Source of the DNA: a virus
Lineage: Duplodnaviria; Caudoviricetes
Virus record (IMG/VR): IMGVR_UViG_3300020045_006418
Location: 1-53,901 of that record
Length of the DNA stretch: 53,901 bases
Reading direction: 5' to 3' (one strand)
How positions within the stretch are numbered: the first letter of the stretch is position 1; every line of letters begins with the position of its first letter. Below are positions 4,798 to 34,232 of the stretch, piece after piece. Made by a program: the position numbers and the translations under genes. The notes beneath the pieces were generated by a model. That model searched no databases and had not been told where the DNA came from. It saw only the letters and a program-made list of their open reading frames with translations.

Positions 4798-6330
4798 ATG
4801 GGACTTAACGCACAAGGAGCAGCCAAAGTACAGGGGGATGTGGTAGATTTATCCGTTCTCATTGCAACTGGGTTAAAAGGTATCCACGCTTTTTTTGGTG
4901 AAACAGAGAGAGGGGAAGAAGGTAAGACTGTGCTTATAGGCTCTTGGACAGAGTATAAAAAAACATTTGGAGGTCTTTTGACTACAAGTGATTTTCCACT
5001 GTTATGTAAGAGAGCACTAGAGGCTGGTTGCAAACTACGAATTGGTAGAGTGTTGCACTACACCGACCCAACGGATAAAAGTACTGTAACAGGTACTAAG
5101 GCTGCTGGAGTGATAGGTGCTATGGACTTTAGAGCCAAAAGTATTGGGGCAGGTGAAACGTTTAAAGTAACTACAACGGCTACAGCCGGAATGTCTGGTT
5201 ATTTTGATTTCGTTATCCAAAATCCGGCAGGGGAGGAAGTTGGAAGAGTTACTCAGGTAAAAACTCCACTTATTGAAGCTGACAGGGTAAGGGTAAATGC
5301 TTCAAACAACGGAGTAGAATTATTAACGTCGTCACTTGGTGATGCGATCACAGCCGGAACAATTACGTTATCCGGAGGTGCAAATACAGGTACAGTGGTT
5401 GCGGCCGATTATATCGGAGATACAAACGCAGTTACAGGTATTCACGTATTCGATCAGGACAATGATTTTGTTAGAATATCATGCCCTGCTATTGCAATTC
5501 CGGCCGTAGATATTGCTTTGGTAGCTTATGTTGTAGGTAGACAAGATTGTAGAGCAATTTTGCGTACTCCTATCGGAATTTCCGGAACTGTAGGTATTGA
5601 CTACAGAGAAGGTACTGGAAGCTATTCTCATTCTCCGGTAAATACTTGGTTGGCTTCAATGATCTTCGGAACATTACAAGTTACACACCCAGTTACCAGT
5701 GATGAGGTTTCAATTCCTGCAATTGCTGATGTTGCCGCTAAAATGTCCGGAAAAGACAATAACAGCGTAGCATGGTTTGCGGCGGCAGGTCCGGAAAGAG
5801 GTAGAATCTACAATACAATTGGGGTTCAATACAATTTAGGAACTGCAGCGAGAAATACAGAATTTGATAACGTGGATAACCACGGGTTAAATGCTGTAAT
5901 TGACGATACAGATTTTGGTCCGGTTTATTGGGGTAATGGAACTATGCAAAAAGCAGATACACTTTTGAAATTTGAAAATGTGGCCGATTTGGTTATTTTC
6001 ATTTTGAGAGGTGTTAAGCCTTTGGCAAAATCGGTTTTATTCAATCCGAATGACGTGGATACTTGGAAAGCAATCTATCGTAAGGTTCGCCCATTTATGG
6101 AGCAAATCAAAGCTGGTAGAGGTGTTTGGGATTATTTGTATCAGGGAGATCAGGATATCGAAAATATCAGCGAAGCTGTGGTAAATACTCCGGCGGATGT
6201 GGATAAAGGTAAATATCGTTTTATTATTTGGATTCAGCCGAAAGTGGCTTTGAAATACGTAGGGTTTGAGATTACGGTAACTAACTCTGGTGTGAGTTTT
6301 GAGGAAATTTCTGGACAACCAACAGTTTAA
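4798..6330 (+). CDS. contractile tail sheath protein
   Basis: 510 aa; FFGETERG, WFAAAGPERG, VYWGNGT, LFNPND..TW and IWIQP motifs of sheath proteins. Confidence 0.92.
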   Translation: MGLNAQGAAKVQGDVVDLSVLIATGLKGIHAFFGETERGEEGKTVLIGSWTEYKKTFGGLLTTSDFPLLCKRALEAGCKLRIGRVLHYTDPTDKSTVTGTKAAGVIGAMDFRAKSIGAGETFKVTTTATAGMSGYFDFVIQNPAGEEVGRVTQVKTPLIEADRVRVNASNNGVELLTSSLGDAITAGTITLSGGANTGTVVAADYIGDTNAVTGIHVFDQDNDFVRISCPAIAIPAVDIALVAYVVGRQDCRAILRTPIGISGTVGIDYREGTGSYSHSPVNTWLASMIFGTLQVTHPVTSDEVSIPAIADVAAKMSGKDNNSVAWFAAAGPERGRIYNTIGVQYNLGTAARNTEFDNVDNHGLNAVIDDTDFGPVYWGNGTMQKADTLLKFENVADLVIFILRGVKPLAKSVLFNPNDVDTWKAIYRKVRPFMEQIKAGRGVWDYLYQGDQDIENISEAVVNTPADVDKGKYRFIIWIQPKVALKYVGFEITVTNSGVSFEEISGQPTV

Positions 6331-6348
6331 CTATAAAATTTAAAAGAA

Positions 6349-6780
6349 ATGGGAAGAAAGACCTTTAACTTCGCCTTAGAGATCGACGGCGTAGATCAAA
6401 TACTTTTCCAAGATGTAAAAAAGCCAGATTATGAAATTGGGGCTGTACTTCACGGAGTTGGAGATGGGAAAGATTCGAAAGAAGCCGGCGGTGTGACGAT
6501 TGCAGATGCCGAGCTACAAAAAATAAAAGCGTCAGAAACTGGAGACAGTTGGGCGTGGGATTGGATTCAGACAGCGATCACAAGTGCTCCGAGTTCGTAC
6601 AAAAAAGATGTAGTATTCAAAGAATACGCTGACGATAAAACCACAGTCCTAAACCGTTTCTTATGGGTAGGATGCTGGGTTAGAAAAATATCAGAAAGTA
6701 ACTGGAAACGCGGTAACAAATCTGAAAATACCATTGAGACGGTAACGTTGTCAGTGGATGATGTGATAAAATTGCTTTAA
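6349..6780 (+). CDS. tail tube protein (T4 gp19-like)
   Basis: FNFALEIDG, WAWDWI, YKKD, GCW and IETVTLSVD; follows the sheath gene. Confidence 0.85.
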   Translation: MGRKTFNFALEIDGVDQILFQDVKKPDYEIGAVLHGVGDGKDSKEAGGVTIADAELQKIKASETGDSWAWDWIQTAITSAPSSYKKDVVFKEYADDKTTVLNRFLWVGCWVRKISESNWKRGNKSENTIETVTLSVDDVIKLL

Positions 6781-6804
6781 ATCTGCTCTTTTATATCTGG
6801 AAGT

Positions 6805-6836
6805 AAAAAACCTCTGTCACTTGGCAGAGGTTTTTT
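6805..6836 (+). terminator. rho-independent terminator
   Basis: AAAAAACCTCTGTC-actt-GGCAGAGGTTTTTT. Confidence 0.85.
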
Positions 6837-6839
6837 CAT

Positions 6840-6870
6840 TTTGTGCGCGGAGCATAATTATGTACTTTTG
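6840..6870 (+). promoter_or_regulatory. Bacteroidota-type promoter
   Basis: TTTG (6840-6843), 19-nt spacer, TACTTTTG (6863-6870), matching the -33 TTTG / -7 TAnnTTTG consensus. Confidence 0.7.
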
Positions 6871-6904
6871 CTAATGACATAATATTAATTTTAAATACTG
6901 AATT

Positions 6905-7699
6905 ATGAATACACATGTTTTTAAATTACCGAGCGGTGTAGAGATGGAAGTTACCGAACTTACCGGAAAACAACAAAGATTGCTAACAGAGCAAAACAAA
7001 AAGAATCACCAAGAGAAGCTGGCTGATATGCTGGCATCTGTCACAGTACGTCTGGGATCCAATACCAGTGTGACAAGTGATTTTATTCAGAATGAAATGC
7101 TGGCCTGTGATATTAAATTTGCACTTACGGAAGTACGCCAGTTTTCTTTGGATTTTGACACTACATTTTGTTTTGTGCATAAATACAAAGATATTAAAGG
7201 CGTGAAGCGTGAGATCACGATTGAGGAAGATATTCCAGATGGACATTTTCCAATGACTACAGTTAAAAAAGCCGTGAAGGACAAAGAGGGTAACACTATT
7301 TTAGAGGATGCCAATTGTGCCGAGTACGGAGAAATCCAAAAAGAGGTTATTATCACACTTCCTAAAAGTGGTAGAGAGGTACGTTTCACAATGCAGGACG
7401 GAAAAGGATCTAATGTAGGAGTACTAACTCCAAAGGCAGATCGTAGCTCACATACGCCAATTAAAATGCGTAGACCTGTTTATTTTGAGGATAACAAAAA
7501 AGGCTCTAAAGTTCCAATCCAATTGGATTTGGATGCATTGAACATTAAGGATATTGAATTTTTGAGAAAAACTATCAAAGATTACGAAGGGAATGTAGAT
7601 ACAGAGCTTATGTTGGAAAATCCGGAAGTAGGTGAGAAAGAGTTAATTGTAGATGTTTTAGGGTCGATAGCTTTTTTCTTCCCATCGGAAGCGATATAG
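6905..7699 (+). CDS. tail assembly chaperone (G-like)
   Basis: Between tube and tape measure genes; FKLPSG / ITLPKSG duplicated motif; ends ...AFFFPSEAI. Confidence 0.75.
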   Translation: MNTHVFKLPSGVEMEVTELTGKQQRLLTEQNKKNHQEKLADMLASVTVRLGSNTSVTSDFIQNEMLACDIKFALTEVRQFSLDFDTTFCFVHKYKDIKGVKREITIEEDIPDGHFPMTTVKKAVKDKEGNTILEDANCAEYGEIQKEVIITLPKSGREVRFTMQDGKGSNVGVLTPKADRSSHTPIKMRRPVYFEDNKKGSKVPIQLDLDALNIKDIEFLRKTIKDYEGNVDTELMLENPEVGEKELIVDVLGSIAFFFPSEAI

Positions 7700-7863
7700 A
7701 TTACGACTATTGCTTTCTAACCTATGATAGTGGACTGCCTTTATCACCAGACGATTTTGATGCTTTAACCTACAGAAGGAGGGAGAAGCTTATGGAATGG
7801 ATGAGAAAGCAGAAAGATATAGAGACAAAACAAGTAGAAAAGGCTAAAGCCGGAAAAGCTTAA
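7672..7863 (+). CDS. -1 frameshift extension of the tail chaperone (GT-like)
   Basis: Slippery T_TTT_TTC at 7672-7678; the -1 frame is open to TAA at 7861-7863, just before the tape measure ATG. Confidence 0.75.
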   Translation, partial: FFLPIGSDIDYDYCFLTYDSGLPLSPDDFDALTYRRREKLMEWMRKQKDIETKQVEKAKAGKA

Positions 7864-7867
7864 TAAT

Positions 7868-10177
7868 ATGGGACTAGGTACATTCAGTGGCGGAGGTTTA
7901 GGTTTTGGAGTAGCTTTCGTATTGGAGGATTACTTCTCAGATGCAGCGAGTACCATCGAGAGACGTATGGGTCAACTTGGAGGTTATACTCAGGAGATGG
8001 CCGATAGTATAGAGAGATCAATGAATCAAATGAAAATAGGAGCAGCATTGGTGGCCGTAGGGTCGGCAATTCTAGCTCCTTTCGTTGCTGGTATAGGAGC
8101 TGCATCCGATCTGGAGGAGAACATAAATAAAAACCGAGTCGCGTTTGGGGAGTACTCCAAAGAGGTAGAAGATTTCGCTGCAGGAGCTTTGGACAAGTTT
8201 GGTATTGACAAAATACAAGCTTTAGACATGACTTCATTATTTGGAGATATGGGTACAGGTATGGGATTCGATAAACAGGCCTCTGCAGAAATGTCGAAAA
8301 CATTAGTAGGATTGGCCGGAGATTTATCTTCATTCAAGAATATTTCTGCAGATATGTCACAAACAGCACTTAAAGGAATTTTTACCGGAGAAACCGAAAG
8401 TTTGAAAAACTTGGGGATTGTAATGACTGAGGCAAATTTACAGTCTTATGCAGCAACTCAGGGAATAAATAAAAACTTTAAGGATCTTAGTCAAACTGAG
8501 AAGGTTATGCTGAGGTTCAATTACGTTATGGACATGTCTAAAAATGCTATGGGGGATTTTGCCAGAACCTCAGACGGATACGCGAATTCTAAAAGGGTTT
8601 TTGAAGGATCTATCAAAGAAATATCTGCGACACTTGGAGGCATATTGATGCCTATAGTTGCAAAAGCTTTCCAAAGTATGACTGGGTTAATGAAAAACCT
8701 TAAAGCATTTTCAGAAACTCCAATGGGTAGAAATGTGATGATAGGAGTAGCGGCTTTAGGTGCTTTTCTGGTAGTAGGAGGTTTAGCTCTTATTTTAATA
8801 GGAGGTTTGAGATTTGGGGTGCTAAAAATGGCAGACGCTTTCGGAGCTAGTACCAAAGCTAAAATAATTGATACCATAGCAACAAAAGGATTGAGTGCCG
8901 GACTGAGAGAAATGGGAGCATCTTTATGGATTTCATTAGGTCCTCTTCTTTTAATAGTGGCTGCAATTGCAGTCTTTGCTTATGTAGCAAATGAGGCTTG
9001 GGATATGGTCACGCAGGGTGAGGAGACTATGGTACGTTTTGGCATGGTTTTATTCTATCTATTGGGACCTATAGGATGGATAATAGGAGCAGTAGCCGGC
9101 ATCTATAGGGGATTCAAAGAATTAAATGAATGGAAAGGAGATCAGGGTGGTATTATAGGTTTCTTTATGCGAGTAGCCGGAGTTATAGAGGCAGTAGGAG
9201 AAATTTGGGAGAGTTTCAATGGGGAAACTTTTACCCTTACAGATGAATTAGCCTCTAAACTTGAAGATATGGGAATACTAGATTTTGTAATAGAATTAGG
9301 TACGTGGGTTTCTAGGATTAAGATGTTTTTAAGTAGTGTTATAGATACAGTTAGGGACGGTTTTAATGATATGGGACAGCATATATCTGAGGTGTGGGAT
9401 AGACTAAAACAATCTTTTGAGGGTATAGGAGAAAAGTTAAGCAGTATATGGGAAAAACTAAAAGTTTTATTTGCCCCAGTAGTAGAGATGATAGGCAAAC
9501 TTTTGGAGAAATTGGGTTTTGGAAAAGGAAAACTGGAGACTTGGGGAGATGCCGGAAAATTAGTTGGGGACATTATTGTAGGGGCTATAAGTGGTATTTT
9601 AGATGTATTAATATTTTTAATAGAAGTAATAGTCTGGGTTATAGACGCAGTATTATGGCTGGTAGATACTTTTTTGAGCGGGGCTCAATGGATTAAAGAT
9701 GGTATATCCGGAATTATAGATTTTATATTTGAGATGATTGATGCACTATTTCAAGTGGCTTCGATGGCTTATGATGTAGGAGTATCCTTCATGACTAACA
9801 TCTGGGAAGGGCTAAAATCTATGTGGGAAAGTGTTTGGGCTTGGCTACAGGAAACTGTAGGAGGTGCTATCAACATCCTAGCTGATCCTCTTGGGGCAAT
9901 TGGGGACGGATTATCAGCCGTTGGGAACTTCTTAGGAATAGGAGGCGATGAGGAAGGTGCTGGAACTGGCAAGCCTGCAGGGGCTGGAATAGCTTCAAAA
10001 GGAAAAGGAGGAGACGGACACCATATGCAATCTTCAAAATCTCCAAATGTGTTTAATAATAGCACTAATAATAACGGAGGCGGAGGAGGTCAAACAGTGG
10101 TGAACAATTACTTAGATGGAGAGTTGATCTCTCAAACTATGGTGGATAAGAAACAATTAAATGACGCTAGGAAATAA
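7868..10177 (+). CDS. tape measure protein
   Basis: 769 aa, helical, Ala/Gly-rich; GETESLKNLGIVMTEANL motif; hydrophobic segments and periodic Trp/Phe. Confidence 0.9.
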   Translation: MGLGTFSGGGLGFGVAFVLEDYFSDAASTIERRMGQLGGYTQEMADSIERSMNQMKIGAALVAVGSAILAPFVAGIGAASDLEENINKNRVAFGEYSKEVEDFAAGALDKFGIDKIQALDMTSLFGDMGTGMGFDKQASAEMSKTLVGLAGDLSSFKNISADMSQTALKGIFTGETESLKNLGIVMTEANLQSYAATQGINKNFKDLSQTEKVMLRFNYVMDMSKNAMGDFARTSDGYANSKRVFEGSIKEISATLGGILMPIVAKAFQSMTGLMKNLKAFSETPMGRNVMIGVAALGAFLVVGGLALILIGGLRFGVLKMADAFGASTKAKIIDTIATKGLSAGLREMGASLWISLGPLLLIVAAIAVFAYVANEAWDMVTQGEETMVRFGMVLFYLLGPIGWIIGAVAGIYRGFKELNEWKGDQGGIIGFFMRVAGVIEAVGEIWESFNGETFTLTDELASKLEDMGILDFVIELGTWVSRIKMFLSSVIDTVRDGFNDMGQHISEVWDRLKQSFEGIGEKLSSIWEKLKVLFAPVVEMIGKLLEKLGFGKGKLETWGDAGKLVGDIIVGAISGILDVLIFLIEVIVWVIDAVLWLVDTFLSGAQWIKDGISGIIDFIFEMIDALFQVASMAYDVGVSFMTNIWEGLKSMWESVWAWLQETVGGAINILADPLGAIGDGLSAVGNFLGIGGDEEGAGTGKPAGAGIASKGKGGDGHHMQSSKSPNVFNNSTNNNGGGGGQTVVNNYLDGELISQTMVDKKQLNDARK

Positions 10178-12190: not shown

Positions 12191-12191
12191 A

Positions 12192-12881: not shown

Positions 12882-12897
12882 TTCATATATTTGTAGT

Positions 12898-13371
12898 ATG
12901 GATAAAGATTTAAAATATAGTAGAAGTTTAAAAGGGTTAGTAAGTATAATCTATAAAATACAACTTTTATCATCAAAAAGAAGAAAGCATCCTGAACCAA
13001 TTTACAGTAGGGATAGTTTTATACTGTGGTGTATGGAAAATAGTAAGTTTTTAAAACTTTACAAAGATTGGGAAGATTCAGGTTTTGATCCTAAAAAGAA
13101 ACCTAGTATTGATAGAAAAATAGATGCTTTACCCTATAGTTTTGATAATATAGATTGCTGTACTTGGGATGAAAATAGAACAAAAGGAAATAAAGCAAAT
13201 GCGATCGTAACCTCTAAAAAAGTTACTGCCTATTTACAGAATGAGGCTGTAGGTACCTATAATTCCATAAGCGAAGCAAGTACAGAGTTACATATTGAAA
13301 GGGTTAATATACGAGCTGTGTGTAATGGTAAAAGAAAAACTGCTGGAGGGCTAACTTTTTCTTTGGATTAA
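12898..13371 (+). CDS. HNH-like homing endonuclease with NUMOD1 domain
   Basis: PSIDRK..PYSFDN..TWDEN nuclease-like motif and YNSISEAS..IRAVCNGKRKTAGG; very AT-rich; interrupts the baseplate module. Confidence 0.7.
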   Translation: MDKDLKYSRSLKGLVSIIYKIQLLSSKRRKHPEPIYSRDSFILWCMENSKFLKLYKDWEDSGFDPKKKPSIDRKIDALPYSFDNIDCCTWDENRTKGNKANAIVTSKKVTAYLQNEAVGTYNSISEASTELHIERVNIRAVCNGKRKTAGGLTFSLD

Positions 13372-13372
13372 A

Positions 13373-13404
13373 TTTGGTTTAAACATAAATTTAATCTACA
13401 TTTA
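13373..13404 (+). promoter_or_regulatory. promoter (TAnnTTTA variant)
   Basis: TTTG 13373-13376, 20-nt spacer, TACATTTA 13397-13404. Confidence 0.5.
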
Positions 13405-13478
13405 CAGTCTCCTAATAATTTTGATTTTTAAATAGCACCAACAATTAAGTAATTTTATATACAGGAACGGCAAGGTAA

Positions 13479-15590: not shown

Positions 15591-16341
15591 TCTAAAGAAT
15601 ATAATTGTCGAGAAGTATTTCCCCAAATTCATGATTGTAAATGATTACAATAAGGATTCGGAGGGAAAAGGGTTTTTGCAGAGATACTCGGAAACTATGG
15701 CTCAGGAGTGGGATGAGACTGTTATTTCGGTTGCCTTTAGGCTTCTGGATAGCACTCTTATCCCTGATACCGTTTTAGATAAATTCATTCCATATTTGGA
15801 GAGTAATATGGGACTTATTGCAGTACATCCGGATTTAGGAATAAGAAGGAGAGTTTTGCAGAGAATAATTGAAGTATACAAATGCAAGGGAACTGAGAGA
15901 AGTTATCAATTGATGTTCAACGCACTAGGATTTGAAGGTGTTGAAATTCTGCAGGCAGGAGTTGATTTTGGTTTTGACAGTCTGGTAACATTTGACAATG
16001 AGGTGAGAACTTTCGATATGGGGAGATGCCACAAATGCAAGTATTACAGGGTAAATATACTAAATGGGCCGGCTATCGATAATACGATGTATGCAGCCAT
16101 AAGAAATGCAATAAAGGTTGTAGAGCCAATTTATTGTCGTTTGATCGATATTTGGGTAGATGGAGAGGAAGCAGAATTGCTTACTATCTACATCGAGGAA
16201 AATGGGGATTTGGTGTACAACAGTTTGGCGGAGGATTTGATTGGATTTACTTTGGCACCTAATGGAGACCTGAAAGCTTACGGGGCTAATGAATCAAAAT
16301 ATAAAGTGGACAGTAACGGTAATATGATACAATATGACTAA
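15583..16341 (+). CDS. baseplate wedge / P2 gpI-like tail protein
   Basis: RRRVLQRIIEVYKCKGT motif; follows gpJ. Confidence 0.7.
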   Translation: MFNLKNIIVEKYFPKFMIVNDYNKDSEGKGFLQRYSETMAQEWDETVISVAFRLLDSTLIPDTVLDKFIPYLESNMGLIAVHPDLGIRRRVLQRIIEVYKCKGTERSYQLMFNALGFEGVEILQAGVDFGFDSLVTFDNEVRTFDMGRCHKCKYYRVNILNGPAIDNTMYAAIRNAIKVVEPIYCRLIDIWVDGEEAELLTIYIEENGDLVYNSLAEDLIGFTLAPNGDLKAYGANESKYKVDSNGNMIQYD

Positions 16342-17776
16342 TTTAGGAAATGTAGCCGGTGTGGTTGTTGGACCAAATCCGCCGTTAGAAGCGGACGGGG
16401 TTACGGAAAAAAGATATGTACTTTGGGGACAGCCTATAACAGGAGGTGCCCCAAATGAGTATATAGTTAAATATTGGAACACTGCCAAAGGGGAGTGGGT
16501 AGGTCTTGACGCTGTTCGGGAGATTATAGATGATAGTATGGTATCTGGGGATATTACCACAGATAAAACTTTCTCTAAAGTTAAAATTTTAGATCTTATA
16601 GGATCCGGAGGTGTAGAAATAGGCTTACAGGAAGTGCTTAATGTAGACGGAAAGGCAGAGGATGTGACTATAACACTAAAAAGCTCTTCACAACCAGCAG
16701 AAATACACCTTTCAAACGAAGAAATACTATCCGAAGATGGGGATTCATCTACTAAACTATCGGCAAGTGGAATTGTAGTTGATAATGCTAATGAGAGGTT
16801 AGATTATCAATCTAATTCAATGACATTCACAGATAAAGTGAGTGGTTTTATTACTAAAATTTGGATGCTTAGAACCGCTGCGGGCTTTGTTGAATTTAAA
16901 TTTAATCCTCTTAAACCTGCAGGAGTATGGACAGTTGCAACAGCTGATGAACTCGATTTAAAATTGAATATTGCGGATTATAACCAACATTTTAGAGGAA
17001 AATATACTTCCTTAGCATTGTTACAGGCAGCAATTTCCACGGCAAACGATGGAGATTACGCCATTATAGATACAGGTACAGGTGTAAATGCAAAGGAGTA
17101 TATATGGGATGCTCAGGAAGGTTGGATACAGTCTAGTTCCACTAGTGCTTCAACAACTGATGCTCTGCCCGAAGGATCAACAAATCTATATTTTACAGCA
17201 GCGCGTGCTTTAGCAGCAGCAGCAGCTTCCATAGCTTTAAAGCAAGATATTTTAACTGATATAAATTTTGGAGCTTTTATAAATGGATTAACTGGCAAAA
17301 CAACTCCTATAAATGCGGATAGTATTTCAATTGTAGACTCAGCAGATTCGAACAAACAAAAGAAAGTTTCACTAACCAATATTAAAGCTTTTTTAAAGGT
17401 GTATTTTGATGGTATTTATCAGGCTATTTTAGTTTCAGGAACTAGTATAAAAACCGTTGGAGGTGTTTCTTTATTAGGAGCAGGAGATATACCATTATAT
17501 TCCCAAAAAACTATTACGGGTAATGTAACGCTTGACGACTCGTACAACGGATGCATTGTGAAAGTAAAAGCAACTTCGACAATTAGCATTCCGGCAACAT
17601 TGGCAACTAATTTTAACTGTGTTTTTGATGTGTGGTCAGGATTTACAGCAACATTTACGCCGCTATCAGGTGCGAGTATAATTGAAACAGCATTGGTATT
17701 GGATTCTGATAAAATGGCTACGCTCTATAAAGACGGAGCTACATCTGTTTACAAATTAAAAGGACAAACAACATGA
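16334..17776 (+). CDS. tail fibre-like protein
   Basis: 480 aa mosaic, Ser/Thr/Gly-rich; TDALPEGSTNLYFT and SGTSIKTVGGVSLLG modules seen in phage fibres. Confidence 0.7.
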   Translation: MTNLGNVAGVVVGPNPPLEADGVTEKRYVLWGQPITGGAPNEYIVKYWNTAKGEWVGLDAVREIIDDSMVSGDITTDKTFSKVKILDLIGSGGVEIGLQEVLNVDGKAEDVTITLKSSSQPAEIHLSNEEILSEDGDSSTKLSASGIVVDNANERLDYQSNSMTFTDKVSGFITKIWMLRTAAGFVEFKFNPLKPAGVWTVATADELDLKLNIADYNQHFRGKYTSLALLQAAISTANDGDYAIIDTGTGVNAKEYIWDAQEGWIQSSSTSASTTDALPEGSTNLYFTAARALAAAAASIALKQDILTDINFGAFINGLTGKTTPINADSISIVDSADSNKQKKVSLTNIKAFLKVYFDGIYQAILVSGTSIKTVGGVSLLGAGDIPLYSQKTITGNVTLDDSYNGCIVKVKATSTISIPATLATNFNCVFDVWSGFTATFTPLSGASIIETALVLDSDKMATLYKDGATSVYKLKGQTT

Positions 17777-19176
17777 TAGTACCTGCAGCTCATTTAGTTT
17801 TTGGCAGAAAATATGCTGCTGAATTTGATCCTAAATCACTCTCTTTAATTTGTTATATAAGAAGTTGGGAAGGTATTTCCGTATCAGGCACTAACGTTAC
17901 AGGATTGACGGATTTGACAGGAAATGGAAATAACTTTTTATCAACAGGAAGTCCTCAAATCGTGGATAGCGGTATAAATGGGGTTAAATCTATTAGGTTT
18001 TCAGGATCAAATAACATTTATCGCCAATTAGCAATGACAGGGATTACTAGTACATCTAAAAGATCTGGTTGGATAGTTTTTAAAATAGAAGATCCTACAG
18101 GGGTTGTTTATCATAATATTTTGATGATGGGTGCTATAGATTATACTAATGGAGGAGAAGTCAATGAGCATATTTATAACCCTAATTCAACTAGCAATTT
18201 TATTCACAATTTCTTTGTTGACGCTTTAGACAGCACAAGCGTATCGCCTCAGTTAGAATCTAAATTTGGGATATTCACAAAGAATTCAGGAACGTCTAAA
18301 TTAGAAGTCAACAACGTAGTGAGTAGCGGTACCGGTACTCAAACAGTAGAAAATATGGGCGTTTATATTGGTCAATGGAATGCTAGGGGTGCTAAAATGC
18401 TATTTTGTGAATTCGCACTATTAGATAACGACACACATGTTTTATCTACTACAGATATAGCTAATTTAAAAAAATACTTCAAAATAAAATATAATATTAA
18501 TCCCGGATTTGTAGCCCCTGTAATTACCATTGTAAATCAAGGTGTGAACGGAAATAATACAAGTGATGTAATTGCTCGTTTATCAACCATAAATGCACAA
18601 TTGGGTAACTTAGTAATATTAATGATAGGAACAAATGATTGGAGATATCCTGTAGCTGGAAATAGAAGAACTCCGGCTCAATACCAAGCTAATTTAGTTA
18701 CAATAGTACAGAGTTTAAAAGCCAATGGAAGTCAAGTTTTATTAATGAGTATGCCTCCAATTATAAATGCAGAAAGCGATTATGTATGCCCTTTTTACAG
18801 TCAGGCTTCTGGATGCGATGCAAATGCAACAGGGGATCAGTTTAGAGCAAAAGTGCCTTTAGTGGCAACTTCTGAGAGTGTTATGTTTTTAGATATGAAT
18901 CAAAAGTTCATTGATATTGGACAGCCAACATATGCTATAGATTCCTACATGGAAAATGCATTGAACTCATCTAGCACAGATGGGGTGCATCCGAGACCTA
19001 TAGGTGCTTTATTTATTGCTCAAAAAATAAATGAATACTTAGTGTCAAATAATTTGCATTACAGCAAAATAGTATGTGTTGGAGATAGTATTACCTATGG
19101 TGATGGATTAACTGGAGGCGGCACTGCTACAGGACAAACTTATCCTGCTCAATTAAAAATATTATTAAACACATAA
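17773..19176 (+). CDS. receptor-binding protein: LamG/concanavalin-like N-terminus plus circularly permuted SGNH hydrolase
   Basis: Motif order NQGVNG (block II), IGTND (III), DGVHP (V), then GDSIT (I) near the C-terminus. Confidence 0.75.
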   Translation: MIVPAAHLVFGRKYAAEFDPKSLSLICYIRSWEGISVSGTNVTGLTDLTGNGNNFLSTGSPQIVDSGINGVKSIRFSGSNNIYRQLAMTGITSTSKRSGWIVFKIEDPTGVVYHNILMMGAIDYTNGGEVNEHIYNPNSTSNFIHNFFVDALDSTSVSPQLESKFGIFTKNSGTSKLEVNNVVSSGTGTQTVENMGVYIGQWNARGAKMLFCEFALLDNDTHVLSTTDIANLKKYFKIKYNINPGFVAPVITIVNQGVNGNNTSDVIARLSTINAQLGNLVILMIGTNDWRYPVAGNRRTPAQYQANLVTIVQSLKANGSQVLLMSMPPIINAESDYVCPFYSQASGCDANATGDQFRAKVPLVATSESVMFLDMNQKFIDIGQPTYAIDSYMENALNSSSTDGVHPRPIGALFIAQKINEYLVSNNLHYSKIVCVGDSITYGDGLTGGGTATGQTYPAQLKILLNT

Positions 19177-19558: not shown

Positions 19559-20174
19559 TTTTAAAATATTTAGCGGAAATACACTTAAAACAACAGGAGG
19601 AGCGGATATTTCGCTCCTTTCTCCCATTGTAGCAAAGTGGGAAGGTGGTTTTGTAGCAGATCCTGTAGATAAAGGAGGGGCTACGAACATGGGAATTACA
19701 ATTGGAACTTGGAAACTTCTAGGTTACGATAAGAACGGAGATGGTAAAATTGACAAAGCGGATATGAAACTTTTGTCGAAGCAGGATTTTTCCCTAATTT
19801 TGAGAAAGTATTGGGATAAGTGGAAAGCTGACGAAATTTTGAACCAAAGCGTTGCCAATATTTTGGTGGACTGGTACTGGGCTTCTGGAAAGTGGGGTGT
19901 TGCCATACCACAAAGAATAATGGGATTAGTAGAGGATGGAGTCGTAGGGCCAAAAACTCTGGCAGTTGTAAATTCGAAAGATCCGGAAACACTTTTCAAT
20001 ATGATTAAGAATGCAAGGATCAAATTTGTAACGGACATAGCTGTAAATTCGGTTAAAGCATACGAAAAGAAAGTTAACAGAAAAGCTACAGAAAAAGAAA
20101 AAATGTCAAAAACTCAATACAGATTTTTGGCGGGCTGGCTTAACCGATTGGATGATTTTAAATTTAAAGCGTAG
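19551..20174 (+). CDS. endolysin, glycoside hydrolase family 108 with peptidoglycan-binding C-terminus
   Basis: EGGFVADPVDKGGATNMGIT, DGVVGPKT and FLAGWLNR. Confidence 0.92.
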   Translation: MSDFKIFSGNTLKTTGGADISLLSPIVAKWEGGFVADPVDKGGATNMGITIGTWKLLGYDKNGDGKIDKADMKLLSKQDFSLILRKYWDKWKADEILNQSVANILVDWYWASGKWGVAIPQRIMGLVEDGVVGPKTLAVVNSKDPETLFNMIKNARIKFVTDIAVNSVKAYEKKVNRKATEKEKMSKTQYRFLAGWLNRLDDFKFKA

Positions 20175-20179: not shown

Positions 20180-22462
20180 ATGCAAAGACGGTTCTGGAAT
20201 TGGAAAGACGACGATTTAACCATTGATATAGATCAGTGGTTAATTGGTATTGTAGATAGTGGGAGGTTTAGAGGATTTGATCCGGTGCTGGGAGGTACCA
20301 TGACCTTAACTTTAAATCATGCTACTACAGGAGCTATCCGTGTGGGGATAGACAAGCTCTATACTTCAAAGTTTGGGGTACTGGCTACAAAACAGGGATT
20401 AATTGTACAGGAGTATGATCCTGTAGATTTGGTAGTTCCTACAACACCGTCAGGAAAGTATAGAAAAGGGGTTGTAATTTTTACCCATGAGTATACAACT
20501 GTTGTAGGCGGTCAGGAAGGTCTTTACTCAATTATCTGGAGCGCACTTACTAACGTTGGTGATGATCTGGATTTTCCTGCTCTGGACAGTGAAACCACAC
20601 AAACGATTTTAGGTTATATTACTTTGCCGGAAAATTGTACTGCTTTGAATAATGCAGGAGTGGTTTATACACAAGGAAAAATACCGTCTTTTGCAAATCA
20701 GGCTGATTTTATAGAAAAAACAAACGGATTCTTTCTAACCAATTTAGATGCCAGAAACCACAAAATAGTTAATTTACTTAGCCCTGTTGAGAGTTTAGAC
20801 GCTGCCAATAAGTTGTATGTAGATACGGTGTTTTCGAACATTAAAAAAGCTACAGAGACGTTTTTTGGTATTGTAAGAATTGCTACAACTGCAGAGGCAG
20901 AAGCCGGAACAGATGATGAGGCAGTAATTACGCCTTTCAAATGGGTGAAAGCTTTCATAGCAAATTTAGCGAGTCAATCGGAGGCTAACGGCGATACGGT
21001 GGATAACAAGGCTTTAACGCCTAAAACTCTGGCAAACAGAACCGCTTCTGAGACTAGAAAAGGTGTTGCCAGAATAGCTACAGAAGCCGAAGCAATTGCA
21101 GGTGAGGATGATTTAACGATCATTACACCTTTCAAATTGAGAAAGGCTTTGCCTTTAACTCCTGAGGTTGTAGATCTGGGAGCTTGGGACATGGATACAA
21201 ACGATAGTATTACGATTCCTCACTCATTCGACTGGTGGGATAAAGTTGTATCGAGTGAGGTAACTATAGTTTCTGATATTGCCAAAATATTTAAATTCAA
21301 ACACGAAACCGTAAGCATTGACGCTACGGAAATTTTTGTGGAGAAATTAGCCGGAACTTTTACCGGAAGTGATTTTAACGCATCTACCGGAAATCGTGGA
21401 TATATTGTATTTTGGGTGAAATTAGATATTCCGGATTTTGAAGGATATTTAAATGTGAATGCAGGAGCTGACCAGACAAAAGTTTGGCCGTTTAATACTA
21501 CTTTACCTTTTACAGTAAATTTGGTTGGATTTGTTGAAAGTGGAGGAAGTGCATTAACTGGCATTACTTGGAGTTTAGTGAGTGGTCCTGTTGGAGCTAT
21601 AACCTCATTCTCTGCTCCAACTTCGGCAATTACAAACTTTTTAGCTAATCAATACGGAACTTATACCCTGAAATTAACAGGAACAAACGCTGCTGGATTA
21701 ACTGCAGAGGATAGCATTGTTTTATACATGTCTCAAGCGGCGAATATACCTCCGGTAATTACAAATATTTTAGTTCCATCTCAGGGAACAGCTGTGAGTG
21801 GTGGAAGTACTTTTACAACTGACGGTACAATTGTGGCGACAGATGCCGACGGAGATTCACTTACTTACGCTTTGACAGAAGTAAGAAGTTATGATTCCGG
21901 AACCGGAACAATAGGACCTGATGTGGTAGGTAGTACCGTAGGCATTTCTATAACCGGAAATACTTTTCATTTATCCAATATGGTTGCAACCTCTACAAAT
22001 GGGCAACCGGTAGAGAGTGATGGATCGAGATGGTATTACTTCAAAGTGACCGTTAGTGATGGAAATGGTGGAACTGCAGTTTCTGCTTTCAAAATTAAAG
22101 TGGCTCCAATACCAAACCCGAATCCTTCGTTGACTTTTGCTCCGGATGAAAATCCTGCGCCAAATAGATATACAGGGGCGTTAATTATGAATAACTTTGC
22201 TAATGTTACCAAAGTTACCATGACAATAACGTCATTCTCTGTAAATCCGCCGTTATTATTACTTGGTACAAGTATTTCATCGACTGCTTATGCAGCGAAT
22301 GGTACTTATGTGGTGAATGAGCTTATAAGATCAAACAGTCCTTTTAGTTTTCAGGGTAGGGGATCAGACGAAAGCCAATACTGGCCTACTGTAACCTTTA
22401 AAGCTTTCAATGCAGCGAATCAGGAAATAGGATACGCCTATATGAATTTAGGAACACGATAA
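20180..22462 (+). CDS. tail fibre protein with T4 gp34/gp12-like repeats and Ig/PKD-like domains
   Basis: Repeats ATETFFGIVRIATTAEAEAGTDDEAVITP / ASETRKGVARIATEAEAIAGEDDLTIITP; VNAGADQ..WSLVSGP..GTYTLKLT; DADGDSLTY. Confidence 0.8.
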   Translation: MQRRFWNWKDDDLTIDIDQWLIGIVDSGRFRGFDPVLGGTMTLTLNHATTGAIRVGIDKLYTSKFGVLATKQGLIVQEYDPVDLVVPTTPSGKYRKGVVIFTHEYTTVVGGQEGLYSIIWSALTNVGDDLDFPALDSETTQTILGYITLPENCTALNNAGVVYTQGKIPSFANQADFIEKTNGFFLTNLDARNHKIVNLLSPVESLDAANKLYVDTVFSNIKKATETFFGIVRIATTAEAEAGTDDEAVITPFKWVKAFIANLASQSEANGDTVDNKALTPKTLANRTASETRKGVARIATEAEAIAGEDDLTIITPFKLRKALPLTPEVVDLGAWDMDTNDSITIPHSFDWWDKVVSSEVTIVSDIAKIFKFKHETVSIDATEIFVEKLAGTFTGSDFNASTGNRGYIVFWVKLDIPDFEGYLNVNAGADQTKVWPFNTTLPFTVNLVGFVESGGSALTGITWSLVSGPVGAITSFSAPTSAITNFLANQYGTYTLKLTGTNAAGLTAEDSIVLYMSQAANIPPVITNILVPSQGTAVSGGSTFTTDGTIVATDADGDSLTYALTEVRSYDSGTGTIGPDVVGSTVGISITGNTFHLSNMVATSTNGQPVESDGSRWYYFKVTVSDGNGGTAVSAFKIKVAPIPNPNPSLTFAPDENPAPNRYTGALIMNNFANVTKVTMTITSFSVNPPLLLLGTSISSTAYAANGTYVVNELIRSNSPFSFQGRGSDESQYWPTVTFKAFNAANQEIGYAYMNLGTR

Positions 22463-24905: not shown

Positions 24906-25373
24906 ATGAGGAAAATAAAGGGTTACGAGAATTATTCAATAACCAGAAAGGGTGAGATTATTAACACCAGAACTGGGAGAACATTGAAAAAGCATATATC
25001 AGAGAAGGGATATGCTTATATTTTCCTGAGCAGTAAAGGGAAATCTAAAAAATTTAGAGTTTGCAGATTGGTTTATTTAACATACAAGGGAGAAATATCC
25101 GGTGAGATAAATCACAAAGACAGAAATATTCTAAACGATTCCGTTACTAATTTGGAGGACATAACAGGCCGAGAGAATATTTTGCATTTCATGGAAAATA
25201 AAACCGGATTTACTGGAGTTGTAAAGAAGGGGGAACGGAAGTACAGAGCACGAATTACGGTCAAAGGTAAAATCTATGAGACCACGAGAACCACGGCAAT
25301 TAAAGCCTCCGAGTGGTATAAACAAAAAGCGGAGGAATTAGGTTTGAGTCTAAAGTATGCAAAGACAGCCTAA
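24906..25373 (+). CDS. NUMOD4-HNH homing endonuclease with AP2-like C-terminus
   Basis: IKGYENYSITRKG, INHKDRNILNDSVTNLE, TGFTGV..YRARI. Confidence 0.85.
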   Translation: MRKIKGYENYSITRKGEIINTRTGRTLKKHISEKGYAYIFLSSKGKSKKFRVCRLVYLTYKGEISGEINHKDRNILNDSVTNLEDITGRENILHFMENKTGFTGVVKKGERKYRARITVKGKIYETTRTTAIKASEWYKQKAEELGLSLKYAKTA

Positions 25374-27285: not shown

Positions 27286-27286
27286 A

Positions 27287-29168: not shown

Positions 29169-29169
29169 C

Positions 29170-29430
29170 ATGAATGATTTTAAATTAGAAGGTCCAAAGG
29201 ATGTTCTAAAATTCTATATTTATAGAAAAGAGGTAGCTAAAGTAACTATTGACGTTGTTGAAGGAGTTGAGAGTCTGGCTATAATTGTACAATTGAAATT
29301 AAGTTTCAAACATAGATTGAGAGCTTTGTTTTCCGGAGATTACAGAGATAAGATGTTATGTTTGTGGCAATTGGAAATAGACGAAAGACTGGAATCCAAT
29401 ATAAATGTAAAATTGGTTTTTGTATCATGA
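29170..29430 (+). CDS. hypothetical protein
   Basis: Short ORF coupled to its neighbours. Confidence 0.5.
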   Translation: MNDFKLEGPKDVLKFYIYRKEVAKVTIDVVEGVESLAIIVQLKLSFKHRLRALFSGDYRDKMLCLWQLEIDERLESNINVKLVFVS

Positions 29431-30932: not shown

Positions 30933-30937
30933 AAAAT

Positions 30938-30968
30938 TTGTTTATAACCAAATTTTAGACTACCTTTA
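30938..30968 (+). promoter_or_regulatory. promoter with palindromic operator
   Basis: TTGTTTATAACCAA 30938-30951; TACCTTTA 30961-30968. Confidence 0.6.
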
Positions 30969-30986
30969 TACTCAATAAAATGGGAT

Positions 30987-31247
30987 ATGAAAGTGAGTAC
31001 TATTAAAACGAAACAATTAAGGTTCAAGTACAATTTTCTTTTGGGAGAAAAGGTGAGTTTGTTGGATTGGGTTGAATCCAGAGAAAAGGCACTATTATTT
31101 GATCCGGATAATGAAGGATTGTTGAAACTGTTACAACAGGAGTTGAAAAGAGTTAGGGAGATTACAGCAGAGATGGTTTCTCTGGATGCTGAAATAAACA
31201 AAATTTTAATGTATGGAAAGAGAAACAAGAGCGGAAAAAACCACTAA
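30987..31247 (+). CDS. hypothetical protein
   Basis: 86 aa ORF after the promoter. Confidence 0.55.
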   Translation: MKVSTIKTKQLRFKYNFLLGEKVSLLDWVESREKALLFDPDNEGLLKLLQQELKRVREITAEMVSLDAEINKILMYGKRNKSGKNH

Positions 31248-31647
31248 CGTAGATTTAAGAATTCCAATAAATAAAGAGGCTATAATGAAAGAAGCTAAAG
31301 GATGTTTCGGAATGTTATGGGATCTAAGAACCTCAGAATGTTCAAAATGCGCAGACAGAGATGTGTGTGGTATATTGTTTAATGACAATGTAGTTAAGCC
31401 AACTACTGAAAAAATACAAGAGGAATCCGGATCTATATTTCTGGACTTAACTGATTTTGAAGAAGTGACTCCGGAGAAAATAATCAAATACGTAGTATCC
31501 GGAGAAACTACAACTCAGGATTTGATAGCGCATGTTGGGGCTTTGGCTCAAACATCGGACAGAAAGGCAGCAATTGAATTTTTGAAACGATTCATAACCT
31601 CAACACCTAATATTTACACTAAAGAAGGAATAGTATGGCTGAGATAG
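31213..31647 (+). CDS. hypothetical Cys-rich protein
   Basis: GCFG..ECSKCADRDVC; possible metal-binding site. Confidence 0.6.
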   Translation: MERETRAEKTTNVDLRIPINKEAIMKEAKGCFGMLWDLRTSECSKCADRDVCGILFNDNVVKPTTEKIQEESGSIFLDLTDFEEVTPEKIIKYVVSGETTTQDLIAHVGALAQTSDRKAAIEFLKRFITSTPNIYTKEGIVWLR

Positions 31648-34232
31648 TAAATAAAGACTGTACCGAATGCAAATTACACAAAGGGTGTAATTCGGTTTGT
31701 GTAGAAGGTGCCGGAAGTTTTGAAGGGAGTTTGATGATTATAAAAAGTAATCCGAGCGGGAACGAAGATTTAAAAGGTAATTATGCCGATGAGAAATTAT
31801 TGGAGCAATTACTTTTTGATGTTGTTGGAGCGAAAAAAGGAGACATTTATAAAACTTATACTACTCGATGCCATGTTGTTGGGAGCATTAGTAAAAGGGA
31901 GCTTTTGGCTTGTAGACCTTATTTGGAAGAAGAAATAAGAAGAATACAGCCAAAAGCTATTTTATGTATCGGGGAGGCGGCATTGAAACATTTAACCACA
32001 GGTACATTAGCTAAAAAAAGAGGAGCAGTTGAAGTTTTAAATATTGCCGGAATGGATATTCCAATGGTATGTACGTATGACAGTAAGTTTGTGGATGCCA
32101 ATATGAAATATTTAACCGTTTGGGCAAAAGACGTACTCAGAGCTTACAATCTATCAAAAGGGATTGTATCGAGCAATAGCCCTACTGCTATGGTTTACTG
32201 CGATGATTTTGATAAAATCAGACAGGCTGTAGCATATATAAAAGAAGTAGGGTTGGCAGTATTCGATTTTGAGACAGTTAAAATCGATGAGGATAAAGGG
32301 ACATTCCATGAAGATTTTTATGCTACTGCATTGTCTTTCACTTTTCAGGCCGGAAGCGGTTATGTTATTCCTTTGGATCATAAAAATAGTCCATTTACAA
32401 AGGAGGAAGTAAAAGAGATCATGTACTATTTACAAATGCAGGTTTTTGAGAACAAAATAATCCGAAAAGTTGCCCACAACTTAAATTTTGATGCTCACGT
32501 ATTGAGAGTTTATGGCGTTAGATTGAGAGGTAGAATTGACGATACAATGTTAATGCACCATTTGTGGGATGAAACAAAAAAACATGGTTTAAAGGAAATT
32601 GTAGAGGATTTTATGCCTCAGTATGCCGGATACGACGATGAGTTGAAAGGATTCAACTGGGCAGATATTCCACTGCCTATTCTTTGTCAATATGCAGCAA
32701 CGGATACCGATTTTACTTATAGAATACTGGTATTACTTGAAAGTTATCTGCAGGAAGATCCTAGATTGTATAAAATTTATAGAAACTTAACAATGCCTGC
32801 TTTTAGGGCATTATGGGAAGCTGAGGTTAAAGGGATGTTGATAGATACACAATTTTTATCTTCTGCCATTAGAGAGTTAGATACTTTAATACAGAGACAG
32901 AAAGCGAGATTGAGAGGAAATAAAGTTGTAAAAAGATTCGAAGATCATAATCGTGAGGAAGCTACAGCATTAGCAATTGAAGAGTACACAAATAAACTAC
33001 AGAAGTGGAGAGAAACCCACAAAAACAAAACTGCTACAGAGACCAAAATGGAAGCTAAACTGGCAGGGTTGAAATCCGGAACTGAAATTGCTTATAAAGG
33101 AATAAATTTTGGAAGCCCTGCACAAATGTCCAATCTTTTGTATGAGAGTAAAGCAGGTTTTAGATTTTCGTCATTGGAAACCGGAACTGGTAAGGATATT
33201 ATAAAAGAGCTTCCGGATACTAGTGGGTTTGTGGAGGGACTTTTGAGTCTTAGATCGTTAGAAAAAACACAGTCTACTTATTTGGAGGGAATATATAAAA
33301 GGCTGGATAAAAATAATAGAATCCATACTACTTTTAAAATAGCAGGAACTACATCTGGAAGGTTATCTTCTGCAAATCCAAATTTGCAGAATGTACCAAA
33401 CGTTGCAAAGCTGAGAGATGAAACGCTTATACACGCTGTAGGATTGATTAAAAAGTGTTTTATAGTTCCAGAAGGGCACACGATGTTTCAATACGATTAT
33501 GCACAGGCAGAGCTTCGTATTATTGCAGATTTTGCCAATGAGACTGCTATGTTGGAGGTATATAAAAATAATGGAGATATTCACTCCAAAACCGGATCTG
33601 AGATGTTAGGAGTAGCTTTGGCAGATTTTGATCCCAAAAACATTGCAGAACACAAAGGAGCGAGATCGAGAGCAAAAGCGGTTAATTTCGGTTTGATTTA
33701 TGATATGAGTGCTTCCGGATTTAAGGATTATGCAAAAAATGAATATGGACTTATTTTGACAATGCAGGAAGCAGAAGCTACCAAAGATCTATTTTTCAAT
33801 ACATATCCGAAATTGCTTCATTATCATGAAGATTACAAAGACAAAGCCAGAAAATTTGGATGGGTGAGAACGTTGTATGGAAGAAAAAGAAGAACTCCTG
33901 ATATAAATGGAGATGATAATTTTAAGGCGAGTTTGGACGAGAGGGTAGCTATTAATAGTCCGGTTCAGGGAACAGCTGGAGAATTTACAGTTTTTGCGGT
34001 TGCACTGTTGAGAAATAGATTAGATCCAAGAGTGCATTTGGTAAATACGATCCACGATAGTATTATTTTCTACATACCAGACGATTTAATTGAAAGTGCT
34101 GGAGCAGTGATTAAGGATACTATGGAGAATCTACCTAACAGGCAGTATTTTGGGGTAGATTTGAAACATATAGGTATGTCAACAGATGCAGAAGCTTCGA
34201 AAGTTAGTTGGAAGGATTTACAGGAGGTATAA
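31635..34232 (+). CDS. polA: family A DNA polymerase with N-terminal family-4 UDG-like domain and 3'-5' exonuclease
   Basis: CTEC..RC..ACRPYLEEEI (UDG fold); FDFET, AHNLNFD, YAATD (exo); TTSGRLSS, DYAQAELR, RAKAVNFGLIY, NSPVQGTA, IHDS (pol). Confidence 0.95.
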   Translation: MAEIVNKDCTECKLHKGCNSVCVEGAGSFEGSLMIIKSNPSGNEDLKGNYADEKLLEQLLFDVVGAKKGDIYKTYTTRCHVVGSISKRELLACRPYLEEEIRRIQPKAILCIGEAALKHLTTGTLAKKRGAVEVLNIAGMDIPMVCTYDSKFVDANMKYLTVWAKDVLRAYNLSKGIVSSNSPTAMVYCDDFDKIRQAVAYIKEVGLAVFDFETVKIDEDKGTFHEDFYATALSFTFQAGSGYVIPLDHKNSPFTKEEVKEIMYYLQMQVFENKIIRKVAHNLNFDAHVLRVYGVRLRGRIDDTMLMHHLWDETKKHGLKEIVEDFMPQYAGYDDELKGFNWADIPLPILCQYAATDTDFTYRILVLLESYLQEDPRLYKIYRNLTMPAFRALWEAEVKGMLIDTQFLSSAIRELDTLIQRQKARLRGNKVVKRFEDHNREEATALAIEEYTNKLQKWRETHKNKTATETKMEAKLAGLKSGTEIAYKGINFGSPAQMSNLLYESKAGFRFSSLETGTGKDIIKELPDTSGFVEGLLSLRSLEKTQSTYLEGIYKRLDKNNRIHTTFKIAGTTSGRLSSANPNLQNVPNVAKLRDETLIHAVGLIKKCFIVPEGHTMFQYDYAQAELRIIADFANETAMLEVYKNNGDIHSKTGSEMLGVALADFDPKNIAEHKGARSRAKAVNFGLIYDMSASGFKDYAKNEYGLILTMQEAEATKDLFFNTYPKLLHYHEDYKDKARKFGWVRTLYGRKRRTPDINGDDNFKASLDERVAINSPVQGTAGEFTVFAVALLRNRLDPRVHLVNTIHDSIIFYIPDDLIESAGAVIKDTMENLPNRQYFGVDLKHIGMSTDAEASKVSWKDLQEV

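Follow-up and report, generated by a model that had tools for sequence, protein, structure and literature searches.

The 53,901-base virus record IMGVR_UViG_3300020045_006418 (the window, by which we mean the whole of this stretch; G+C 37.3%, with all long open reading frames, or ORFs, on the + strand) is rich in the short palindrome CCGG, and above all in its six-base extension TCCGGA. Loss of short palindromes is a familiar trait of phage genomes, so that a palindrome as the top word is a bias in an unusual direction, and the question raised by this genome is what drives it. An original prediction, made from the sequence alone, had noted strong enrichment of CCGGA/TCCGG in the core genes and proposed that CCGGA may be a selected mark, such as the target of an enzyme encoded at 47268–48602. 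The first part stands, the motif being non-random at the DNA level, and the second is not supported: the CCGG excess, sharpest as TCCGGA, is a DNA-word property shared with Bacteroidota and not a mark peculiar to the phage. The explanation that we favour, at a little short of an even chance, is that DNA in Bacteroidota cells, including that of phages replicating there, is under a shared context pressure whose effect restriction has sharpened.

Size and distribution of the excess

CCGG occurs 149 times in the window and GGCC, which has the same composition, 60 times; CCGGA, TCCGG and TCCGGA are present in 111, 82 and 58 copies, respectively. The number of CCGG sites expected is 58.4 from base composition (order-0), 57.2 from an order-1 Markov model and 116.9 from a maximal-order Markov model (z 4.2), and the 58 copies of TCCGGA are 11.6-fold more than the 5.0 predicted at order 1. 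The excess persists in the codon-preserving check that the original prediction had named as a test of itself. With synonymous codons shuffled (500 shuffles per gene, 65 genes), the genic counts are 146 for CCGG against 82.3 ± 6.9 expected, 108 for CCGGA against 41.5, 80 for TCCGG against 27.8 and 56 for TCCGGA against 14.2 (3.9-fold, z 12.7); none of the 500 shuffles attains any of these four observed values (z 9–13), and GGCC is found 58 times against 56.0. Codon usage alone is thereby ruled out as the cause, and dinucleotide effects are ruled out by a shuffle that keeps dinucleotides as well (CCGG 146 vs 109.8, z 7.3; TCCGGA 56 vs 26.7, z 8.1; overall z 7–10). Ranked by over-representation under the synonymous shuffle, CCGG, CCGGA/TCCGG and TCCGGA head the 4-, 5- and 6-mers of the window, respectively. 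A DNA-level CCGG/TCCGGA bias is confirmed as real and statistically strong.

There are several features of its distribution. First, TCCGGA is evenly spread, with 1.08 copies per kb over the whole contig and 2–10 copies in each 5-kb bin. The copies start at positions 3930, 4478, 5371, 5581, 5746, 5790, 7621, 9707, 11435, 12290, 14519, 14948, 15257, 15828, 16604, 19982, 21430 and 21896; at 22141, 22565, 23834, 25818, 25922, 27677, 28075, 29332, 29762, 30240, 30294, 31103, 31426, 31470, 31498, 33075, 33212, 33714 and 34885; and at 35681, 35870, 36819, 38490, 38934, 40652, 42602, 42756, 43267, 43715, 44618, 45594, 46124, 46217, 46947, 47742, 50230, 50632, 50801, 51281 and 53483. Such an even distribution within genes, at about 1 site per kb, does not resemble that of known parS or pac sites; a binding site for ParB or for the packaging machinery had been among the roles first suggested. 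Second, almost every gene is about two-fold enriched in CCGG (146 in total vs 77.6, the expectation for each gene being taken from its protein sequence and the global codon usage), and 146 of the 433 codon contexts able to encode CCGG do so. The enrichment described for the core genes at 4798–34232 is present there but is not restricted to them, 95 of the 149 sites lying inside that interval. Third, there are some genes without enrichment, namely two in the tail-fibre region (16334..19176, + strand; 6 CCGG vs 6.7 expected) and the capsid gene (673–1899; 1 CCGG vs 3.0). Fourth, CCGG is missing, as had been reported, from the two homing-endonuclease genes at 12898–13371 and 39200–39940, although this count is uninformative since just 0.5 sites are expected in each; a third homing-type gene (HNH; 24906–25373) has 2 CCGG.

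The two genes in which the enrichment was originally counted are those for the tail sheath (4798..6330, + strand; phrog_23 tail sheath, E 1.2e-36) and for DNA polymerase A, which has an N-terminal UDG-like domain and a 3′-5′ exonuclease (31635..34232, + strand; PF00476 6.7e-78, PF01612, PF03167). The hand counts were exact in both. The sheath gene has 11 CCGG (at 5186, 5224, 5354, 5372, 5500, 5582, 5635, 5747, 5791, 5920 and 6190) against 4.7 expected, four of them within TCCGGA, and contains GGCC three times; 39% of its 28 dipeptides able to encode CCGG do so. The polymerase gene has 10 CCGG against 4.2, three of them within TCCGGA. All 21 sites are in a CCGGA or TCCGG context, with T before or A after in each, and 7 of the 21 are TCCGGA in full.

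Flanking bases, reading frames and codon context

The anatomy of the bias shows at what level it acts. CCGG is present in the frame CCG|GNN at 63 sites, in NCC|GGN at 82, in NNC|CGG at one and between genes at three. In the first of these frames the preceding base, a third codon position, is T at 49 of the 63 sites (21 expected), and in the second it is the following base that occupies a third codon position and is A at 73 of the 82. These mirror-image flanks in two frames point to the palindrome TCCGGA, read on double-stranded DNA, as the target. At least one T or A flank is present at 132 of the 146 genic CCGG sites, and the flanks act multiplicatively: sites with both are enriched 3.9-fold (TCCGGA, 56 vs 14.4), those with a single flank 1.9-fold (T only, 24 vs 12.9; A only, 52 vs 27.2), and those with neither are reduced to 0.5-fold (14 vs 27.5). 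Unflanked copies are also low for GGCC (14 vs 23.6), CGCG (7 vs 12.2) and GCGC (7 vs 16.5). Set against the shuffle by frame, CCGG counts 63 vs 45.7 in frame 0, 80 vs 34.8 in frame 1 and 5 vs 4.1 in non-ORF DNA.

This arrangement bears directly on the proposal that the pattern arises in translation, from a codon-pair preference (NCC-GGA, CCG-GAN), or results secondarily from the avoidance of other words (CCNGG, CTGAAG and CGGGA among them). NCC-GGA pairs are indeed abundant (72 vs 17.6 expected). NCG-GGA pairs, with Ser, Thr or Ala codons ending in G, number 1 against 17 expected, a deficit that CCNGG avoidance does not explain, and CGGGA (8 vs 24.9) and CGGG (31 vs 57) are low in the window. 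Some relatives of the phage, moreover, have an excess of CCGGA on the coding strand without any TCCGGA (the loci L021, L023, L026 and L027; CCGGA 16 vs 5.8 in L026 and 17 vs 6.5 in L027, with 49 vs 28.8 in L106), as a codon-level preference would predict. Yet T is favoured before CCG only if the next codon begins with G (49/63 vs 26/60; before other Pro codons it is found at 148 of 348), a dependency that extends over three codons and is not given by any adjacent codon-pair model. The mirror-image flanks from two frames, and the enrichment of host-type bacterial genomes in three frames and in non-coding DNA (below), argue against it too, and a shuffle barred from making 26 avoided words yields 16.6 ± 4.0 TCCGGA vs the 56 observed. 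Simple codon-pair bias and a by-product of word avoidance are rejected as the main cause by these shuffle, frame and next-codon tests, and we give such an origin hardly any weight.

TCCGGA in Bacteroidota chromosomes and phages

There is no DNA match between the window and cultured phages, and protein identity to these is below 30%. Public sequencing runs containing the window DNA were looked for, and none is listed. Uncultured relatives, gathered by alignment-based scans (a single-protein scan of IMG/VR gave none), are common, with tail sheaths up to 60% identical; the complete ones are about 70–74 kb, so that about 20 kb of this phage genome is missing from the window. Two relatives are binned in metagenome-assembled genomes (MAGs) titled Flavobacterium sp. 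and Cyclobacteriaceae and, together with the G+C content and the type of lysin, this makes Bacteroidota the probable host phylum.

TCCGGA is present in all of the 401 Bacteroidota genomes in which it was counted. Density statistics for the first 100 of these, with AGGCCT (same composition) as a control, give a median of 0.45 TCCGGA per kb and values of up to 1.4, compared to 1.08 in the window. TCCGGA exceeds AGGCCT in 87 of the 100, and by more than two-fold in 73; three have at least 1.0 per kb and 17 fewer than 0.1. A rich example is a low-GC genus containing genome G033, in which TCCGGA is present at 0.59–1.40 per kb in all eight genomes and the control at about 0.1 per kb. In a sample of one member, G403 (G+C 37.9%), there are 505 CCGG vs 281 and 96 TCCGGA vs 41, with enrichment in all three frames (z 8–12.5) and in non-ORF DNA (29 vs 9.4). 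CCGG is above the shuffle in each of 10 other Bacteroidota genomes sampled (z 3–16), and in the cultured Bacteroides phage B40-8 it is found 25 times with both flanks (vs 12.0, z 4.4), 82 times with one (vs 44.2, z 6.9) and 33 times with neither (vs 36.6). A CCGG excess was not found in E. coli (274 vs 276.6), T4 (40 vs 38.0) or Flavobacterium phage immuto (34 vs 25.9). The host genus of immuto looks poor in TCCGGA, a Flavobacterium MAG (G001) having 128 copies in 3.0 Mb; crAss001 has almost no CCGG. The notion of a mark of the phage's own therefore has to be given up, as TCCGGA is abundant in Bacteroidota chromosomes and in B40-8 too. In the literature covered, which does not include most subscription journals, we found no account of an excess of TCCGGA or CCGG in Bacteroidota.

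Similarity of oligonucleotide signatures between phages and their hosts is a described principle (the parts of PMC2917420 and PMC5831537 consulted), and the broader word usage of the window conforms to it. The top codon-corrected 4-mers CCGG, TCCG and CGGA are common to the window and to genomes G403, G408 and G033, and the codon-corrected 4-mer profile of the window correlates with that of four of five sampled members of the rich genus at r 0.38–0.41 (0.19 for the fifth, G405); nine other Bacteroidota genomes give at most 0.30, E. coli 0.18 and T4 −0.12. As in k-mer host signatures generally, the codon-corrected word biases of the phage resemble those of a candidate host clade and are absent from unrelated controls; this case differs in that one palindrome carries most of the signal and in that the phage is graded more steeply by flank than the bacteria are.

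Under the explanation favoured here, a sequence-context pressure on DNA replicating in Bacteroidota cells would raise TCCGGA in host and phage alike. The pressure might be a biased mismatch or base-excision repair, or some other mutation bias, toward C:G in the T-C-C-G-G-A context, and we lean slightly toward such a repair or mutation bias over selection of the word as a site that is bound or marked. If a bias of this kind is the cause, it provides a new example of a host cell shaping the sequence of a phage, and the word would be a sharp marker in predicting hosts.

Several observations weigh against this explanation. First, the flank grading is steeper in the window (3.9/1.9/0.5 for both, one and neither) than in G403 (2.35/1.84/1.55), and a shared signature alone thus falls short of reproducing the phage pattern. 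Second, enrichment in the third frame, NNC|CGG, is seen in the bacteria and not in the window (1 vs 1.2), whose genes hardly use CGG as a codon (10 codons). Third, the window shows no depletion of the transition neighbours of TCCGGA (TCTGGA 46 vs 25.2, TCCAGA 16 vs 14.9, TTCGGA 8 vs 13.5, TCCGAA 9 vs 9.9). Fourth, a profile correlation of about 0.4 is reached equally by a Flavobacterium phage without TCCGGA excess. Fifth, among related loci with at least eight CCGG there is none near the TCCGGA excess of the window (z 14, synonymous shuffle). Sixth, among the eight (incomplete) genomes of the TCCGGA-rich genus Vsr is found in none and PF00145, a C5-methyltransferase domain, in three. Finally, the same eight genomes, compared with the window DNA for independent evidence of the host (a spacer, prophage or tRNA match), yielded no convincing host: apart from one stretch of the lysin gene (below) the matches were weak, and nothing was spacer-like. 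The main weaknesses are the steeper grading of the phage, its silent third frame and the lack of a convincing host match.

A specific form of repair bias would be very-short-patch (VSP) repair coupled to a cytosine-5 methyltransferase, which would turn T:G into C:G and so build up the word. VSP repair has reportedly been proposed, by Bhagwat and McClelland in 1992 and by Elhai in 2015, as the origin of E. coli word biases and of HIP sequences. The CCWGG-related bias of E. coli resembles the present one as a DNA-level context process that raises a palindrome together with its partial matches, and the graded fall-off with partial flank matches seen here is what a repair enzyme of relaxed context would leave. 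The likeness does not extend to the enzymes or to their footprint. No Vsr or C5-methyltransferase domain was found among the 66 window proteins scanned against Pfam (the contig being incomplete), the rich genus has Vsr in none and a C5-methyltransferase in three of its eight genomes, and VSP repair is at odds with the undepleted transition neighbours. Neither Vsr nor Dcm-type methylation accounts for a bias that is shared by the phage, Bacteroidota chromosomes and a cultured Bacteroides phage, and we consider VSP repair very improbable.

A second alternative to the context pressure is that Bacteroidota and their phages keep TCCGGA under positive selection as a functional site, comparable to HIP1 (GCGATCGC) of cyanobacteria; it could be bound by a nucleoid or repair protein, act as a 'self' signal against a nuclease or be the target of a methyltransferase. 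Elhai is said to have reported in 2015 that partial matches of HIP1 are enriched and that a matching methyltransferase accompanies the word. The two words are alike in being palindromes in excess throughout a genome, at synonymous positions within genes and in several frames, with no agreed function, and the portion of PMC5861425 available to us describes enriched partial matches and argues that HIP1 is kept by selection. A functional site is also in keeping with TCCGGA heading the over-represented words of phage and host-type genomes alike, with multiplicative flanks like the half-sites of a dimeric binder, with the even spacing of about 1 per kb, and with the excess in non-coding DNA of host-type genomes. 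The excess is modest, however, at 3.9-fold over the codon shuffle (11.6-fold over order-1 Markov), compared to 15–300-fold for HIP1 (same portion of PMC5861425); only about a third of the possible CCGG contexts are used; and the density of the word is below 0.1 per kb in 17 of the 100 Bacteroidota genomes tallied. The sites are not conserved between relatives, as the closest relative found (L051) has no TCCGGA and hence shares no sites with the window, and relatives are viable without a single CCGG. No candidate binding protein and, in this incomplete contig, no cognate methyltransferase have been found, and the setting differs from that of HIP1 in being a phage and Bacteroidota. We regard a functional site as unlikely.

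In its most explicit version, which we hold equally doubtful, TCCGGA is an undescribed iterated palindrome of Bacteroidota (about 0.5–1.4 per kb) that is kept for a function; phages such as this one and B40-8 would mimic it adaptively, and those facing CCGG cutters would lose it. In that case it may serve as a site for a nucleoid or repair protein, or both strands may be read as a 'self' or recombination signal. Were selection the cause, a DNA-reading factor not yet known would be operating in a major bacterial phylum.

Two side observations concern the bacterial genomes. Many Bacteroidota genomes are nearly devoid of AGGCCT (some with 8, 12 or 15 copies), and the low counts of TCCGGA and of AGGCCT in some genomes are probably avoidance tied to BspEI- and StuI/HaeIII-type systems. 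On contig C1 of G403 there are TCCGGA pairs exactly 36 bases apart (32830/32866, 36471/36507, 36958/36994 and 59155/59191), which hints at a repeated unit containing the word.

Restriction avoidance, modification genes and gene content

Avoidance of restriction sites by viruses has been reviewed (PMC6286503, consulted in part), and it is pronounced in this phage and its relatives. CCAGG and CCTGG are both absent from the window, with 12.8 and 15.3 expected in the synonymous shuffle (about 27–30 by Markov models), and CCCGG and CCGGG have one copy each against 7.0 and 5.5, at 18502..18506 and 4011..4015. Each Pro-Gly dipeptide encodes CCNGG, an avoided word, and the proteome has nearly lost the dipeptide (2 vs 33.5 expected; Gly-Pro 16). 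The lack of CCWGG and the presence of just two CCSGG are restriction avoidance that reaches the protein level, and the near removal of Pro-Gly from a whole proteome shows how strong such avoidance can be. Other words are absent or nearly so when observed counts are set against the shuffle (CTGAAG 0/19.2, CAAGAA 1/22.4, TTCTTG 0/12.9, CTTGAT 0/16.2, TGATCA 0/12.6, GATGAC 0/10.5; among 5-mers TCAAG 10/42.1 and CTTGA 9/47.8), probably because restriction enzymes target these as well; not all of them are palindromes.

A lack of enrichment in related phages was among the outcomes that the original prediction considered to count against it, and in close relatives the enrichment is largely absent, with no tested locus near the excess of the window. 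The closest relatives, whose sheath identity to the window is no higher than 60%, have no TCCGGA and 0–11 CCGG (0–1 by another count). Complete loss of CCGG, GGCC and CCWGG among them is exemplified by L004 (21.5 kb), with observed/expected counts of 0/53.9 for GATC, 0/42.6 for CTAG, 0/29.5 for CATG, 0/16.6 for CCGG and 0/16.4 for CGCG; GATC is absent from L010, L015 and L064 also. This phage group is under heavy restriction pressure, with CCGG a common target, and it is against this background that enrichment of CCGG in one member stands out: like its relatives, which lack CCGG, GGCC and GATC, the window avoids restriction words (no CCWGG, two CCSGG), and it departs from them in that a restriction-type palindrome is biased in the opposite direction. 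The context pressure that we favour would accommodate both if the closest relatives meet CCGG-cutting enzymes and have purged CCGG for that reason, and if this phage retains TCCGGA because its own host apparently cuts neither CCGG nor TCCGGA. Avoidance of CCNGG and the two-fold loss of unflanked CCGG would then sharpen the flank preference beyond that of the bacteria.

A different role for restriction is that of shielding. Here the phage would modify T in 5′-TC (or the opposite A, 3′ of CCGG) on both strands, CCGG would survive a host cutter only when flanked, and synonymous flank positions would as a consequence drift to T and A. The flanks are near saturation at synonymous positions (49/63 T and 73/82 A), only 14 of the 146 genic CCGG are unflanked, and the roughly two-fold unflanked deficit is common to all four G/C-only 4-mers, all of which speak for shielding; CCGG-cutting hosts do exist for this phage group, since close relatives have purged CCGG. 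The known thymidine hypermodifications (M6, ViI, phiW-14) offer a parallel, as TCCGGA has 5′-TC on both strands, and the part of PMC6449724 consulted reports that modification derived from 5-hydroxymethyldeoxyuridine (5-hmdU) favours TG/TC steps, with resistance perhaps increased by a T that lies just outside a site. The polymerase with its fused UDG-like domain is also suggestive, this architecture being linked to phages with modified thymidine (SPO1-like, SP-15 and YerA41) in what we have seen of bioRxiv 10.1101/2025.03.26.645540, and there is a modification-like gene cluster in the window.

Nonetheless, shielding predicts that flanked sites are neutral and not enriched, and the 3.9-fold excess of TCCGGA, with TCC rising from 8% of Ser codons overall to 43% ahead of GGA, is a positive preference. 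None of the thymidine-hypermodification genes sought (ThyA-like hydroxymethylase, 5-hmdU DNA kinase, aGPT-Pplase) is recognised in the window, with about 20 kb of the genome unseen; nor is any 5-hmdU pathway gene seen in five relatives, and specifically the ThyA-like gene (PF00303) needed for 5-hmdU is in none of these, two of which are complete. The UDG-polymerase is present in all five regardless of their CCGG content, no CCWGG survives even adjoining T, and the same grading, less steep, is found in unmodified bacterial chromosomes. Shielding is in our judgement as unlikely as a functional site.

The enzyme originally proposed as the cause is encoded at 47268..48602 (+ strand) and is a fusion of a Dam-like and a GNAT-like domain (PF22555 1.3e-40, PF22559 2e-26; phrog_7858). 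The family is common on mobile elements, and one source labels a homologue 'putative antirestriction adenine methyltransferase'. It is absent from all five sheath relatives searched, a distribution that shielding would accommodate. In 66 other viral loci with homologues 39–45% identical, however, TCCGGA is found 167 times where 193 are expected, and unflanked CCGG shows no deficit (868 vs 705), so that neither the word nor the flank rule follows the enzyme. This comparison is a weak one, given the low identity of the homologues and the origin of many of the loci, near-duplicates of one another, in a single metagenome; with that proviso the enzyme is not supported as the driver. No C5- or N4/N6-methyltransferase Pfam match besides the Dam-like domain is present in the window, an incomplete contig.

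The enzyme lies in a cluster at 45972..53900 (+ strand) that also encodes WYL_2, DUF488 (N3a subclade), ParB-like and PAPS-reductase-like proteins, the last truncated by the contig end, together with three unknown genes, one of 555 amino acids with a G+C of 0.46; from these predicted domains the cluster is a possible DNA-modification and anti-restriction island. Family searches of higher sensitivity on the unknown genes at 41–53 kb gave nothing usable. The remainder of the window comprises a myovirus structural module at 217–22462 (scaffold, capsid, sheath, tube, tape measure, baseplate and a GH108 lysin, from Pfam and PHROG matches) followed by a replication module containing a DnaB-like helicase, HU, primase, UvsW-like helicase and the DNA polymerase A with its fused UDG and exonuclease, as well as SbcCD-like proteins, a PIF1-like helicase and RNase H. 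Within the GH108 lysin gene, 110 bases (19635–19744) are 74% identical to contig C318 of the Bacteroidota genome G404, the sole notable DNA match to the TCCGGA-rich genus.

The three homing-type endonuclease genes at 24906–25373, 12898–13371 and 39200–39940 lie among structural and replication genes and are of HNH/NUMOD4, I-HmuI-like NUMOD and GIY-YIG-like types, two having a G+C of 0.31. The UDG-polymerase genes of two relatives (L260 in G411 and L261 in G414) align to the window protein in three separate pieces, within one open frame of 1058 amino acids in G411 and across two frames in G414, which suggests that insertions, either an intein or an endonuclease, are present in these polymerase genes.

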